Positions 48,700 through 60,176 of a DNA stretch of 64,000 bases are shown one piece after another. A program made the position numbers and the translations under genes. The notes beneath the pieces are model-generated. The model did not search any database and was not told where the DNA came from. It saw only the letters and a program-made list of their open reading frames with translations. Origin of the DNA: Eledone cirrhosa (Eukaryota); the NCBI GenBank assembly GCA_964016885.1, contig OZ024745.1:71300001-71364000 (forward strand), given 5' to 3'. Numbering within the stretch: position 1 is the stretch's first letter; each line of letters opens with the position of its first letter.

Positions 48700-48800
48700 A
48701 TATATATATATATATGTGTGTGTATGTGTGTGTGTGTGTGTGTATGTGTGTGTGTGTGTGTGTGTGTGTGTGTGTGTGTGTGTGTGTGTGTGTGTGTATA
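48700..48800. repeat. (TA)n-(TG)n microsatellite
   Basis: Direct. Confidence 0.95.
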
Positions 48801-48812
48801 TTAATATAGAAG

Positions 48813-48863
48813 AGCTTCTACAGGACTAGAACTGTTTCATTCGTGAGAAATCATCAGGAAGCT
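48813..48863 (-). ncRNA. Type I hammerhead ribozyme, family E
   Basis: Minus strand reads AGCTTC-CTGATGA-tttc tcac gaat-GAAA-CAG ttctagtc CTG-TA-GAAGCT: 6-bp stem I, short stem II, 3-bp stem III, GUA cleavage triplet. It lies in a ~100-bp fragment between microsatellites. Confidence 0.85.
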
Positions 48864-48899
48864 TACTGTGGTTACCCCCGATTCAACCCCAAAATAACT

Positions 48900-48998
48900 T
48901 ATATATATATATATATATATATATATATCTATAAATATATATATATATATATATATATATATATATATATATATATATATATATATATATATATATAT
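48900..48998. repeat. (TA)n microsatellite
   Basis: Direct. Confidence 0.95.
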
Positions 48999-49147
48999 GA
49001 AAACAGGGAGAAAGAGGCGATTATGAGGAAGAAAAAATTTTTTTTTTCCTTTCTTGTGTCTCTCTCTCTCTCTCTTTTTTCTGGGTTAGAAAATGATTAA
49101 AACGAAATGTTTTACTTTGTGTATATACATATAGGAAAATGTTCAAG

Positions 49148-49240
49148 ACCCCGACGGCAGACCTCAAGCCCTTTCGACGGCTATTTCTGGGCTAAATTAA
49201 ATATTTAGCAGGTAGAAAATAGCCGAACTTTTCAAGGGGT
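49148..49240 (-). ncRNA. Type I HHR, family C, variant core UUGAAAA (U3-A8)
   Basis: Minus strand reads ACCCC-TTGAAAA-gttcggctatttt...aaatagccgtc-GAAA-gggc...gccg-TC-GGGGT, with one stem III mismatch. Confidence 0.7.
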
Positions 49241-49444
49241 TATTCCATATATGGGCGTGCGGTAATCATGCATTTCTGAAGATTGTAGTTGTCAAAATGA
49301 TTAGTCAAAATTCCTTATAAATACAATTAAATCTTACATGGCGGTGGGTGGCTGAACTTGCGTGTAGAACAAGTACAGTCTTGAGAATCTTGTCAACTAC
49401 AATCTTCAGAAATACATGATTATCGCCCGCCCATATATGGAATT

Positions 49445-55706: not shown

Positions 55707-58093
55707 ATGGATTATTACAACATAACCAATTCAACTAAAGACATTCCTATACCTGGTAAATCTGAATTCACCAAACTTCTAATTGAAACAACTGACTCCT
55801 TCGTAATAAGACTTAGATGGATAGCCTATTTCTATGACCAGCGCCTAAAAGGGAACTTCTATACCAAAGAACATAACTTCCTCGATCATCTATTTAATTC
55901 TAGAAGAAATCCTCCTTCCAACAAAAATCTAGTGCAATTCGAGGAAGAGTTAACAAATATTATAAAAAATCTTAAATTCAAGAGATACCCTTACAAAGGA
56001 CAAGAGCACCTTGTAAATCTCAAGAACACAATTTCTAACCTAAATTCCTCAAAAAATGTTTTAGTCCACTCTGACAAAACCAATAACTTATATGGTATTT
56101 CCAAGGATAATTATAACAACCTTATCCTAAAGGAACTTAGGAAAAAGTATCGTAAAACCAACCATGAAAATGTAGAATACATAAACCTTGAAGCCTCTGA
56201 GATTATGTCAAAACTTGACATTGAAAAAAAGACCGAACCATTCCTCCCAAGAACTCCGAGGATAAATCTCAAGGATCACAAAAACAATTTTCGCACTGAA
56301 CTACCTGTTAGATTAATCGCCCCCTCTAAATCTGATCTGGGGGTTGTTAGTAAAGCCATCTTGGATAGAATTATCCCACAGGTTAGTTCTAATTGCTCTT
56401 CTTTGAACCTAAATTTATGGTTTGGTACTTCTGAAGTGATTGGCTGGTTCAACAAATTGGATAATAAAAACAAACTAAAATTTATTCAATTTGATATTGC
56501 CAGCTACTATTCCTCCATTTCGCCTTCACTTCTCAATAATGCTCTATCTTTCGCACTTAAATATTCTGACATCACCACAGATGAACTTCACATCATCCTC
56601 ACCGCACGTAAAACCATCCTAGAGTTCAACAACGAATATTGGACCAGAGCCGATACCTCTAACAATTTCGACATCACAATGGGAGCATCCGATTCATCCC
56701 AATTGACTGATTTAATTGGTATCTTTATTTTGAACTCTTTGAGTCGGAAAATTCCTCAACTTCGCGGTGGAATTTATCGTGACGATGGACTCTTTACTAT
56801 CTTAAATTGCAATATAGTTAACTTTAATATTATTAAGAACAATATACGTAATTTCTTTAACCAACATAACCTAAAAATTGAATTTGATAACAGTATCAAA
56901 CTAGCTAATTTCTTGGATGTATCTCTTAATCTTGACACTGGCCTATATTACCCTTACCATAAAAACAATGAGAACCTAAATTATGTTAACTTTAAATCTA
57001 ACCACCCTACCAATATCAAGAATGCTATAGTTAGTAATATTGGAAAAGGAATATCTAACATATCTTCTAATAAAAACATCTTTGATGCTAACGCCAATTA
57101 CTATAATAACGCACTTTCTAAAGCCGGCTATCCTGATAAAATCAAATTTAGCAAAGAAACAAATTCTAGAAAAACTTACAGTAGAATAATTAATCATGAT
57201 CATTCCAATAACTTTAATAAAAGACCTAGATACAAAAACATAATCTGGTATAATGCTCCTTTCTCCATCTCTATTAATAACAATATTCCTAAATTATTCT
57301 TTAGTGCCTTAAATAAATGCTTCCCTCCCTCACATATCTATAGTAAAATATTTAACAAACACACCATAAAATTTTCTTATTCTACATCCTCCAATATTTC
57401 CAACATTATCTCTAAACACGACAATAAAATACTAAATACTAAATCTCTTCCTTCCAACACTGAATTTCATAATAACAGTAATAGTACTCGCGACGTCATT
57501 GTAAACCCTAGGCTAATTTCTGTAAACCCAAATATAACGTCAAACACAACTTCGCTAAATGTTCATAATCCAACTCTAAATCAAGAAACTATTATTTCTA
57601 TCGCAAACAACTTCTCCAATCCAATTCCTTCTATAGATAACACTAGGTCACTCATTAATAATCTCTCTAATTGCAACTGCCCTATTAAAAATAAACGTCC
57701 TCTCAACAACCATTGTCTTGATAAAAACTTAATTTATGAATGTAAAGTTATAACTAGCACCAATTCCTTCACCTATTTTGGCTCCACTTCCACCTCTTTT
57801 AAAGCTCGTCTCTATAATCATCATTCATCTTTTAAATACAAACTTAAAAGAACCAACACGGCTCTCTCAGAACTCATATGGTCCTTGAAAGACAAAAACA
57901 TTAAATATACCATCTTTTGGAAGAAGGTTTCTTCTGCGTCTTGAACTGCTCTCTATCTAAAATCTGTAATCTCTGCCTAAATGAAAAATTTACCGTTATC
58001 TCTAATCTAGATTCTATAATAAATAGACGTACAGATTTGTTTTCTATCTGCTTGCATAAATTCCATAAGACTTTTCACAAAGTATACAGCTAA
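55707..58093 (+). pseudogene. PLE reverse transcriptase + GIY-YIG endonuclease, with one frameshift near the C-terminus
   Basis: ATG at 55,707. Motifs STKDIP..RLRW, SDKTNNLY, LKDHK, RLIAP, FDIASYY, MGASDS, YRDDG, NFLDVSL, SNHP, CNC..PL, LIYEC..YFGST. Stop at 57,942-44, but the -1 frame continues KICNLCLNEK...INRRTDLFSICLH to TAA at 58,091-93. Confidence 0.92.
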
Positions 58094-58916
58094 TATTCAA
58101 TTCTTTATCAATTTAGAATCTTTTCTCAAAGGCACATATACATACACTTCTTTTAAAATATACCCATCTTCCTACCTTACTTCAAAGGGTATTATACACT
58201 CTATAATACTTGTTTACTCATTACCCTCACTCTATCTTCACCTTGTAAAATCCTTCGTAACATATACATTTGTTTTGACACCAGAGTATTCATCCTTAAT
58301 TTATTATTTTTTCTCCCCATCATCTAACTCATTCTTAATACATATTAACTCTTTCTTCGCACATATTATCAATTCCTTCAATATACAAACCTTAACTTCA
58401 CATTATTTTTCTCAAATCCTTCAATACACAAACCTTAATAATTTTTTCTCTTCGTTAATTTTCAAATTTCCATAATACTTGTAAACATACACACAATTTT
58501 TTTTTACGTTAGAATATTCGTCCGCAATCCATTATTCTTTTTTCTCTCTATCATCAAACTTTTTAATCTCTATACATATTAACTCCCTCTCCTTCTTCGT
58601 ACATATTTTTCCCTTCGTTAATTTTCAAATTCTTTTAATTTATACATTATCTTCCAACGGTTTTCAACCTCTCTATGTAAAACAATATATCTTTTCTCAG
58701 TTATAAAAACTATCTCTTTCTCTCTATCACCCATCTCTCTCTCTCCACCTTCACTCTCATCTCCTCCCCTTTTTTTCATCCTTTCCACCACCACCACCCC
58801 CTCTCTAAATAAAATATTTTTCCCAATATCACACATCAATCTAAAATTACTTTTCATATGTTGATTTAAAACTGCACTATCCACAAGTGTTTTTTAGCCT
58901 TCATATCATGTCCTCC

Positions 58917-58990
58917 TGTTTTATCTGATGAAAACACAAATATTATTATTGCATGATGATGTTTGTTTTTGAAATGCGCATAATAAAATA
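58917..58990 (+). ncRNA. Minimal type I HHR, family A (3' pLTR)
   Basis: CTGATGA at 58,925-31; stem II ACAAATATTATTAT/ATGATGATGTTTGT with G-U pairs; GAAA at 58,971-74; palindromic TGCGCA; predicted cleavage after 58,982. Confidence 0.8.
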
Positions 58991-59046
58991 CATGGAACTC
59001 CTTTAACCATCTTTTGATCTTATATATATATATATATATATATATA

Positions 59047-59560
59047 GCGGCGATTAATTAGTTTAGCGAGGTTTTTTATATGAAATCGTGTGTCGAAACA
59101 GATATTGTTATACTTGGGGAGGGTCATATTTGCGTAATATTGCCAGAATTAATAACAGAACACACTCACTGTTTGGTTGGTTTTCGCTTCTCGCTGTCTT
59201 TTATATCTGCGATCTAACTTACTCGGTCCTCAATGTTGCCATGAGACTGAATAAAAAAATGGCGTAGACATACAACACAACAGGAGGAAAAAAGAAAAAA
59301 TATAACACCACTGACGATGTTGCAGATGTGCAACGAAAGATTTATGTAAATTATGTAAACTATATATATGTGTTTGTGTCTATATTGTATCTGTATTGTT
59401 TTTGACCGTCGGTCAGTCAATGGCAACATTGAGGACCGAGTAAGTTAGATCGCAGATATAAAAGACAGCAAGAAGCGAAAACCAACCAAACAGTGAGTGT
59501 GTTCTGTTATTAATTCTGGCAATATTACGCAAATATGACCCTCCCCAAGTATAACAATAT
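59047..59560. mobile_element. ORF-less inverted-repeat insertion, family D
   Basis: Arms ~59,102-59,249 and ~59,413-59,560 are near-perfect inverted repeats. The left arm has ~55 extra bp. (TA)n on both sides, with an HHR-like core in the spacer. Confidence 0.75.
59304..59374 (+). ncRNA. Hammerhead-like motif, family D (stem I degenerate)
   Basis: CTGACGA-tGTTGCA gatg TGCAAC-GAAA-stem III TTTATGTA/TATGTAAA-C-TA. Stem I (AACACCA/TGTGTT) pairs only if an extra TATATA is looped out. Confidence 0.5.
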
Positions 59561-59608
59561 ATATATATATATATATATATATATATATATATATATATAT
59601 ATATATAT

Positions 59609-59800
59609 ATAGGAACAAGTAGGACCCCGACGGCTGAGCTCAAGCCGTTTCGACGGCTAATTCTGAGTCCAGAATTAGCCGACGAAACGGCTTGAGCTCA
59701 GCCGTCGGGGTCCTACTCGTTCCTATTACCCACTCTACTACCCTAAGTATTGAGTACTTTGGTGCGTTATGGTCCATCTGGTTCCTTACCACAATTCCTT
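59609..59800. mobile_element. Short palindromic insertion, family C
   Basis: Fold-back centred at ~59,668, inside HHR stem II. Homologous to 49,495-49,633. Long (TA)n on both sides. Confidence 0.85.
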
Positions 59801-60176
59801 ATATATATATATATATATATATATATATATATATATATATATATATATATATATATATATATATATATATATATATATATATATATATATATATATATAT
59901 ATATATAAATTACACCGACAATAGTTTCATTTTCGATTTTGATTTTACTGCTTTATTCAGGAAAGGAAAAGTAGTGGCTTTGACCCTTTTCTTGGGCGTC
60001 CGAGACGTGAGGGTGGAGTGGAGAAAGGTATCCTTAAACCCATAACAGAAGCAATGTTAAGATTGGGGTTAAAAGAGTGTAAATAGGACGCATTTAGACG
60101 GACGTTTATTAAAGCATATTATACTCTGAACAAAGATTTAACCGTATTGCTTGCAACAGGTTGGACTCCGCTAAAG

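Follow-up and report, generated by a model that had tools for sequence, protein, structure and literature searches.

Eleven hammerhead ribozyme motifs at positions 48800..59910 of the window (the whole stretch of 64,000 nucleotides that was analysed) are the end pieces of seven insertions; of their five families, two have open reading frames (ORFs) with reverse transcriptase (RT) and GIY-YIG regions and three are likely Penelope-like, and the array likely arose, with a probability of roughly 0.85, by serial target-primed reverse transcription into TA microsatellites. What the sequence shows directly are the ORFs, the pseudo-LTRs, the arms lying head to head with a tail on one side, and TA at the ends. 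Most insertions carry their own end twice, which inflates the number of motifs.

Hammerhead motifs and the insertions that carry them

A descriptor scan of this span recovered type I hammerhead motifs of five unrelated families, 11 in all, the same families and copies that the sequence-only reading had listed, and type I features (CUGANGA or U3-A8 core, GAAA, UH, helices I-III) were present in all 11, marginally so in D. Positions are given as core base 3.

49841(-), 49976(+), 55394(-), 55435(+) and 58925(+): five family A motifs (descriptor)
50777(-) and 54374(+): two family B motifs (descriptor)
49235(-) and 49450(+): two complete family C motifs (U3-A8 core)
59611-59724: palindrome formed by two family C half motifs
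59311(+): one family D motif, degenerate (descriptor)
48857(-): one family E motif (descriptor; predicted cut at 48819)

The descriptor was adjusted post hoc, after the motifs had already been seen, its first version having missed family C and given one to two loose matches in the left flank; those at 46334 and 48016 were gone under the final version, which detected no motifs in 45485-48799, 59911-64000 or 1-45484, the last of these being occupied by a 21-bp satellite. Dinucleotide shuffling of the span with microsatellites removed (300 shuffles) gave a mean of 0.33 matches and a maximum of 3, with at least four matches in none of the 300, versus five independent families in the sequence itself, and local clustering relative to the other non-satellite DNA of the window had a post hoc P of about 2.6e-4. 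The D motif passes only at a 2-bp helix I, a setting at which at least one match was found in 79 of 300 shuffles. Families A to E are unrelated, as had also been claimed, with 31 to 166 of 200 shuffles reaching the observed score in all ten pairs.

Searches of Rfam gave no matches at the gathering score; Hammerhead_1 was matched only by the two B copies (29.1 bits, E=0.0014, below the cut-off of 34), and the miRNA families matched at the E-value setting lie below threshold and reflect noise from hairpins and repeats. At about 55085-55125 a candidate for a sixth motif was rejected, having a core mismatch and no adjacent helix I; a relaxed scan misses it, and its fold is that of a plain hairpin. 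Neither CTGAAGA word, at 49276 or at 49409, has a helix II, and both were likewise rejected.

The seven insertions account for 9399 of the 11111 bases (85% of the span) and TA tracts for 679 bases (6.1%), so that the span does not consist mainly of the (TA)n-rich DNA of the earlier description. The insertions and intervening tracts are the following.

48800..48899 (-): insertion E, a single short 3' piece with hammerhead (core 48857, cut 48819, closed helix III)
48900..48998: (TA)n tract, interrupted once
49131..49633: insertion C1, head-to-head arms 49131-49298 (minus) and 49387-49556 (plus), hammerheads 49235- and 49450+
49634..49741: pure (TA)54 linking C1 and A1
49742..50162: insertion A1, pseudo-LTR pieces lying head to head about a centre at 49908/49909, with tail, hammerheads 49841- and 49976+
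50163..50252: interrupted (TA)n
50593..54453 (-): insertion B, 5'-truncated Penelope-like element, hammerheads 50777- and 54374+
54454..55204: spacer of (TA)19, (GA)n, unassigned DNA, (TA)42, 117 nt unassigned and (TA)25
55205..59020 (+): insertion A2, inverted pseudo-LTR piece 55205-55416, direct pseudo-LTR 55413-55628, ORF, 3' UTR, 3' pseudo-LTR 58855-59020
59021..59046: pure (TA)13 linking A2 and D
59047..59556: insertion D, inverted 3' piece plus tail of ~59 nt (59047-59250), direct piece ~59251-59556
59557..59611: pure (TA)27 linking D and C2
59612..59799: insertion C2, head-to-head arms cut off inside helix II (two half hammerheads), with tail
59800..59907: pure (TA)54

Inverted arms with one longer end are present in six of the seven insertions; A2 also has direct pseudo-LTRs, and E has no such arms. 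Insertion B has an inverted 3' piece (54075-54453) and a tail of about 105 nt, its arms differ by one substitution in 363 nt and its ends adjoin (TA)7 and (TA)19. In A2, which carries hammerheads 55394-, 55435+ and 58925+, the inverted and direct arms differ by 3 substitutions and 2 indels, and the direct repeats are identical over 123 nt; the arms of A1 are 1.2% apart. Families C and D have the same head-to-head arms and terminal tail as A and B: C1, with its U3-A8 core hammerheads, has a tail of about 80 nt and arms 8.3% apart, C2 has arms 3.7% apart and is 12.8% from C1, and D, a high-copy family with a degenerate sense hammerhead (59311+), has arms 1.4% apart. An antisense orientation of the D hammerhead was rejected, since a contig of run X6 spans 59306-59527 without a break and the true junction is the one marked by loose ends at 59244. 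Insertion E is flanked by short TA and then (CA)n at its 3' end and by (TA)n at its 5' end.

Open reading frames and the Hydra clade

Two ORFs were detected among the insertions, while C, D and E have no ORF within the window.

52482..54077 (-): ORF B, 531 aa, end of the RT/thumb region, CxCX5C linker, GIY-YIG, CxxC and CxH motifs
55644..57947 (+): ORF A, 745 aa from the ATG at 55707, RW-I, DKT, RT motifs FDIAS and YRDDG

ORF A continues into a degenerate linker and a GIY-YIG-like region and is broken by a stop at 57945, the remaining C-terminal motifs lying in another frame. Searches gave 16 full-length homologs of ORF A, 30-37% identical to it, and 366 cluster representatives with E<=1e-30. 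Pfam returned no family and no RT for ORF A or its alignment, PDB sequence and profile searches returned nothing meaningful (no matches in one, one meaningless match in the other), and the GIY-YIG match of ORF B (E=0.002) is below the Pfam cut-off. That the hammerheads are pseudo-LTR parts of Penelope-like retrotransposons with ORFs inside the span had been missed by the sequence-only reading. Read depth in run X1, which is not copy number, goes up from 2,048 at the 5' end of the ORF to 40,000-66,000 at its 3' end and reaches 446,000-651,000 over the pseudo-LTR, the profile that mostly 5'-truncated copies should give.

The closest known counterpart is the Hydra clade of Penelope-like elements (e.g. 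Hydra-1_Obim, Penelope-n_HM; Craig et al., 2021; PMC8557442), which shares the single ORF of RT and C-terminal GIY-YIG, found here in A with a broken C-terminus and in B with a truncated 5' end, at weak profile support. ORF A follows the published Hydra alignment when compared by eye. It reads HSDKT, with DKT in place of DKG, as do 29 of 40 long homologs (DKG in 2 of 40); this region is missing from the truncated B. At the RWK position ORF A reads RWI, with RWK in 13 and RW[KRI] in 22 of the 40 long homologs. The clade's CxCX5C linker, endonuclease without CCHH, and CxxC and CxH motifs around conserved E and N are exact in B; this copy of A is without the last linker Cys and has CxxC/CxH in another frame. 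Also shared with the clade are (TA)n at the ends, the inverted 5'-truncated copy (noted for Penelope-13_HM as well) and a sense hammerhead near the 3' end, in the pseudo-LTR/3' region, its orientation being given by the ORFs in A and B, by arm geometry in C, by arm geometry and the run X6 contig in D, and defined by the motif alone in E. Hammerhead E has the extra-U core layout and the ACAG/CUGU helix III of several listed Hydra hammerheads. Unlike the published elements, A has RWI for RWK, a long helix II and a greater length, its unit of 3490 nt from pseudo-LTR to pseudo-LTR (about 3.5 kb) exceeding the "generally under 3 kb" of the clade; size is a soft feature, one listed entry measuring 3045 nt (PMC8557442), and other A copies in the sequencing runs are without a 225-nt stretch. 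None of the five hammerhead stems equals a Hydra stem of File S2 when compared by eye, so that A to E are other families.

By their sequence features, A and B are the pseudo-LTRs of two Penelope-like elements with RT and GIY-YIG ORFs and Hydra-clade motifs. Families C, D and E are likely Penelope-like ends, their clade being judged from geometry alone, with E a single piece without an inverted arm.

TA tracts and the formation of the array

Regarding the TA tracts, (TA)7 or longer adjoins 12 of the 14 insertion ends, and short, imperfect TA the other two. All four A ends and both B ends lie at TA within the window, which is adjacency and not an empty-site comparison. Other A copies also end in (TA)n, contigs of runs X4 and X6 from two other organisms entering (TA)n at 55545 and 55628, and a (TA)n target is listed for 26 of 27 published Hydra-clade families (PMC8557442). 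Three of the six gaps between insertions are pure TA and no element interrupts another. The chaining of A, D and C through (TA)n was found exactly as first described, A-(TA)13-D-(TA)27-C, and a second chain, C1-(TA)54-A1, places an older copy (8.3%) beside a younger one (1.2%). Arm divergence ranges from 0.3 to 8.3%, a rough clock given arms of 54-363 nt, and points to different insertion ages, which fits serial arrival. No joint skipping a whole insertion was present among the 15 of 116 joints listed, which fall in 55205-59556, where only A-to-D or internal joints were able to appear. TA targeting of these elements is supported by the end counts, the other A copies and the published preference; the sequence-only reading had proposed TA as a self-renewing landing pad, each insertion leaving two TA flanks for the next, and is supported in part, for the targeting.

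Targeting would best be assigned to the element endonuclease and not to the ribozymes. Hammerhead cleavage as the origin of the element ends was rejected, since in all ten motifs that lead into simple repeat the sequence runs on for 20-212 nt beyond the predicted cut. The E and C1+ monomers fold with a closed helix III, and the predicted helix III self-duplex is -10.5 kcal/mol for A, -2.3 for B and 0.0 for D. The ribozymes would be passengers of the 3' end that do not set insertion ends, and are predicted to process precursor RNA, those of A and B as dimers.

In the proposed mechanism, the endonuclease would nick both strands of a (TA)n tract and two cDNAs would begin at two fixed internal RNA sites separated by 59-105 nt; their early termination would produce inverted pairs and double the hammerhead count. 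The split tract would leave TA on both sides, re-grow by slippage and receive the next element. The inverted arms with one longer end fit the pattern described by Craig et al. (2021; PMC8557442) and the two-start-site account of Frangieh et al. (2024; PMC11167929).

A possible alternative, which we hold to be distinctly less probable, is that the TA tracts were largely made by the insertions, RT or repair adding or expanding TA at targets that need only short AT-rich words. At the short ends of A, B, C and D, all four testable families, 7, 3, 3 and 4 nt respectively are common to element and TA target (joint chance about 3e-5, a post hoc count from word frequencies), two ends adjoin only short TA, and for TAFTA transposons of maize, targets of 6-8 bp TA are reported to have expanded to (TA)50 after insertion (PMC5907723). 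Against this, long TA tracts without a recognised element at 54952-55036, 63671-63723 and 63890-63950 indicate that the genome makes TA tracts independently, and published annotation gives (TA)n as an insertion preference (PMC8557442). Tracts made in this way would still yield new landing sites, which modifies serial insertion into TA and does not replace it.

It is rather unlikely that there is no self-renewal and that the locus is the tail of a genome-wide background of abundant truncated PLE ends, accumulated where insertions are tolerated and genes are absent, next to a 45-kb satellite, and picked for its density. The very high read depth of families A and D, the 21-bp satellite filling 1-45484, the post hoc choice of the window and the thousands of minimal hammerheads per genome published (PMC4209133) agree with such a background, which is countered by the three of six gaps that hold nothing but TA and by the 7.4 kb of flank outside the satellite, in which no motif lies, not even in the 3.3 kb closest to the satellite. 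Less probable again is that C, D and E are non-LTR retrozymes, non-autonomous tandem units spreading via circular RNA: they are without an ORF in the window, C1+ and E fold as monomers with closed helix III, and PLE pseudo-LTRs are the reported origin of retrozymes (bioRxiv 10.64898/2026.07.22.740005), but no head-to-tail repeat of a hammerhead-bearing unit was detected in the span (TRF, periods up to 500) and C and D are inverted pairs with tails, as are A and B. Assembly or long-read fold-back artefacts, which the near-perfect palindromes at 49736-50081 and 55204-55627 might suggest, are highly improbable, as the arms differ by substitutions and indels, the tails are asymmetric, the same end points recur in contigs of other organisms and raw reads carry opposite-strand joints at other breakpoints.

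Comparison with other systems and significance

The minimal type I hammerheads of metazoan PLE pseudo-LTRs (Cervera and De la Peña, 2014; PMC4209133) resemble those described here in the short palindromic helix III (A, B, D), the extra base between 9 and 10.1 (D, E), the U3-A8 core variant (C) and the opposite-strand pairs 100-700 bp apart; judged from sequence, A differs in being without G10.1-C11.1, and C and E in a closed helix III of 4-5 bp. In the SaTar arrays of plant MULEs (Valdes Franco et al., 2018; PMC5907723), unrelated families likewise lie end to end via microsatellites with none nested, and the landing-pad idea was published for these arrays. They consist of class II DNA transposons with TIRs, whereas the present ends are those of retrotransposons and not MULEs, and empty TA sites were shown in rice, the likeness here being in the arrangement of filled sites alone. 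The landing-pad idea may plausibly apply to this locus. Poseidon PAc of Anolis (Frangieh et al., 2024; PMC11167929) shares two internal RT start sites giving rise to a tail and an AT-rich target cut on both strands, and inserts in vitro without need for hammerhead cleavage; it belongs to another clade, has a tail of 30-40 nt versus 59-105 nt here, and its start is reported without target homology, in contrast to the 3-7 nt common to short ends and TA here.

It is already published that PLE ends carry hammerheads, that they occur as inverted pairs and that (TA)n is targeted, and inverted-repeat formation and microsatellite bias have been named as open mechanistic questions (PMC8557442). Tentatively, TA-targeting PLEs might prime RT through base pairing between the nicked TA strand and short TA-like words located at fixed places inside their RNA, unlike the homology-free start reported for Poseidon PAc, in which case insertions might seed TA tracts, and PLEs might build self-extending arrays and help to generate host microsatellites. 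With 27 families listed in 2021, the Hydra clade is thinly sampled and gains new families from this locus, which also offers, in little space, a natural case of different PLE families linked by TA and is suited to asking whether TA tracts are targets or products of insertion and whether microhomology acts in priming.

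Hammerhead motifs and the insertions carrying them

The sequence-only reading had listed 11 hammerhead (HHR) motifs, and a CTGANGA scan combined with a descriptor permitting a U3-A8 core recovered exactly the same 11 (five of family A, two each of B and C, one each of D and E); the two C half motifs listed with them together form a palindrome (59611-59724). The descriptor was adjusted with the motifs already known, its initial version returning 9 of the 11 plus one or two loose matches in the flank; as adjusted, it gave no match in the flanks or in the satellite of the window, and dinucleotide shuffles (n = 300) gave a mean of 0.33 matches and a maximum of 3, at least four being reached in 0/300. 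The D motif is marginal under the descriptor. Searches of Rfam at the gathering score gave no match, and a sub-threshold match to Hammerhead_1 was obtained for B only. The stems of the five families had been described as unrelated, and the end regions are likewise mutually unrelated, 10/10 pairs lying inside the shuffle range.

Self-comparison of the sequence resolved the span 48800-59910 into seven insertions:

48800-48899, insertion E
49131-49633, insertion C1
49742-50162, insertion A1
50593-54453, insertion B
55205-59020, insertion A2, containing ORF A
59047-59556, insertion D
59612-59799, insertion C2

These occupy 9399 of the 11111 bases of the span, and TA tracts occupy 679. About 0.9 kb between TA tracts has no recognised element (48999-49130, 50253-50578, 54655-54951 and 55037-55153) and may represent either host sequence that was there originally or additional TA-targeted fragments in which no HHR can be recognised; the last of these segments folds as a long hairpin containing a core-like word.

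Six of the seven insertions are head-to-head pairs of inverted arms whose 3' ends point outward, one of them extending 59-105 nt further, which accounts for the 11 motifs in seven insertions. This is the layout of inverted copy and tail reported for Penelope-like elements (PLEs) (PMC8557442). Arm substitutions number 14/168 in C1, 2/54 in C2, 2/148 in D, 3/211 in A2, 2/166 in A1 and 1/363 in B, and the insertions therefore likely differ in age, the counts being a rough clock. In A2, where 55205-55628 (inverted arm plus direct repeat) was compared with 58903-59020, the two direct terminal repeats (pseudo-LTRs) are identical over 123 nt and have a 3-nt insertion in common, whereas the inverted arm has three substitutions and two indels relative to the direct pseudo-LTR; separate RNA molecules may have served as templates for the two arms, or homogenisation may have made the direct repeats alike.

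Open reading frames and clade assignment

The ORFs in A2 and B (ORF A and ORF B) are ~36-42% identical over the aligned parts; ORF A is interrupted close to its end and ORF B is 5'-truncated. Searches with ORF A gave 16 full-length homologs and, at E<=1e-30, 366 representatives, all of them without a name. Motifs in the two ORFs agree with those given as diagnostic of the Hydra clade of PLEs in PMC8557442: DKT (in ORF A), a CxCX5C linker, CxxC and CxH around the catalytic E and N, and the absence of CCHH; the linker is exact in ORF B and degenerate in this A copy. ORF A also follows the published Hydra alignment, compared by eye. It reads RWI in place of RWK, and the A unit of 3.5 kb is a further departure. 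Profile-library searches with the ORFs added little support. In-frame low-complexity insertions of ~70-130 aa occur in ORF B (52482-54077) and ORF A (57420-57660) and are absent from nine aligned homologs.

Of 27 Hydra families in the PMC8557442 supplement, 26 are listed with a (TA)n preference; one of these comes from Octopus bimaculoides, and its HHR is unlike all five found here. In Octopus vulgaris, 31 recently active Penelope-like families were counted (PMC13282606).

Related copies in sequencing runs

Reads and contigs from 4 of 17 listed runs were compared with 55205-59556 only (A2 through D). The depth of A, which gives no copy number, climbs along the ORF in the 3' direction and increases sharply over the pseudo-LTR, the profile of a family of mostly truncated copies. 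Among the loose-end rows listed (24/1354), contigs from X4 and X6, two runs of one study labelled as two other organisms, enter (TA)n at 55545 and 55628, the same two end points as in the window. None of the 15 joints listed, out of 116, was an empty site, the compared stretch ending short of the outer flanks at which one would show. In all four runs some copies lack 225 nt of the 3' UTR of A (58272-58498), and A subfamilies thus differ in UTR length. D is deeply covered by reads, and an X6 contig crosses its HHR through 59527, which establishes the polarity of D as sense. Read on the antisense strand, the D tail at 59078-59131 looks like a hammerhead 3' half, and 12 X6 contigs join there from sequence ending in a core-like word; the likeness may be due to chance, or a related family may carry a second motif on the opposite strand.

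Insertion ends and TA tracts

(TA)7 or longer adjoins 12 of the 14 insertion ends, the exceptions being the E 3' end and the C1 left end, which adjoin short, imperfect TA; three of the six gaps between insertions are pure TA. All 10 motifs leading into simple repeat (10/10) run 20-212 nt past the predicted cut, so HHR cleavage is not what sets the element ends, in agreement with the Anolis Poseidon element PAc, for which insertion in vitro needs no HHR cleavage (PMC11167929). At the short ends, the continuation of the element matches the TA target over 7 (A), 3 (B) and 4 (D) nt, and over 3 nt in C as read directly off the sequences; the A long end has just a 2-nt match. In these regions, 5-11% of positions begin a run of at least 3, and the joint value for the short-end matches, calculated post hoc, is ~3e-5. 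The short-end matches suggest, from sequence, priming with microhomology, which would be unlike PAc.

According to the literature, PLE endonucleases cut both strands of AT-rich DNA and reverse transcription begins from two sites inside the RNA (PMC11167929), and the linker Zn-finger has been hypothesised to target (TA)n (PMC8557442). ORFs, ends, TA adjacency and chaining are seen in the window itself; the elements would have arrived serially in TA, each insertion dividing a tract so that TA remains on either side. This landing-pad architecture is already known from plant MULEs, for which empty TA sites have been shown in rice and an expansion of TA following insertion in maize (PMC5907723). 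The listings from an open-access literature search contained no empty-site test of it for PLEs, which is weak evidence of absence. Local clustering has P ~2.6e-4 in a post hoc test against the window's other non-satellite DNA only.

Elsewhere in the window, a 45-kb tandem array (1-45484; 21-bp unit, ~94% matches, strong strand skew) ends 3.3 kb before the PLE cluster. A second array, degenerate and rich in pyrimidines, lies at 60920-61803; its units are 8-9 bp long and its higher-order periods are 17, 26 and 52. SINE-like dispersed repeats (46987-47198, 62109-62479, 48470-48548 and 62886-63030, with an inverted pair at 62176-62479) have no long TA at their flanks and presumably resemble octopod SINEs; the copies at 46987-47198 and 62109-62479 would point to an octopod host.

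With novelty judged against part of the PMC8557442 supplement, the remainder of which may hold closer sequences, the cluster is real but ordinary: a stack, within TA tracts, of families that are new but belong to a PLE clade whose TA targeting is already known.
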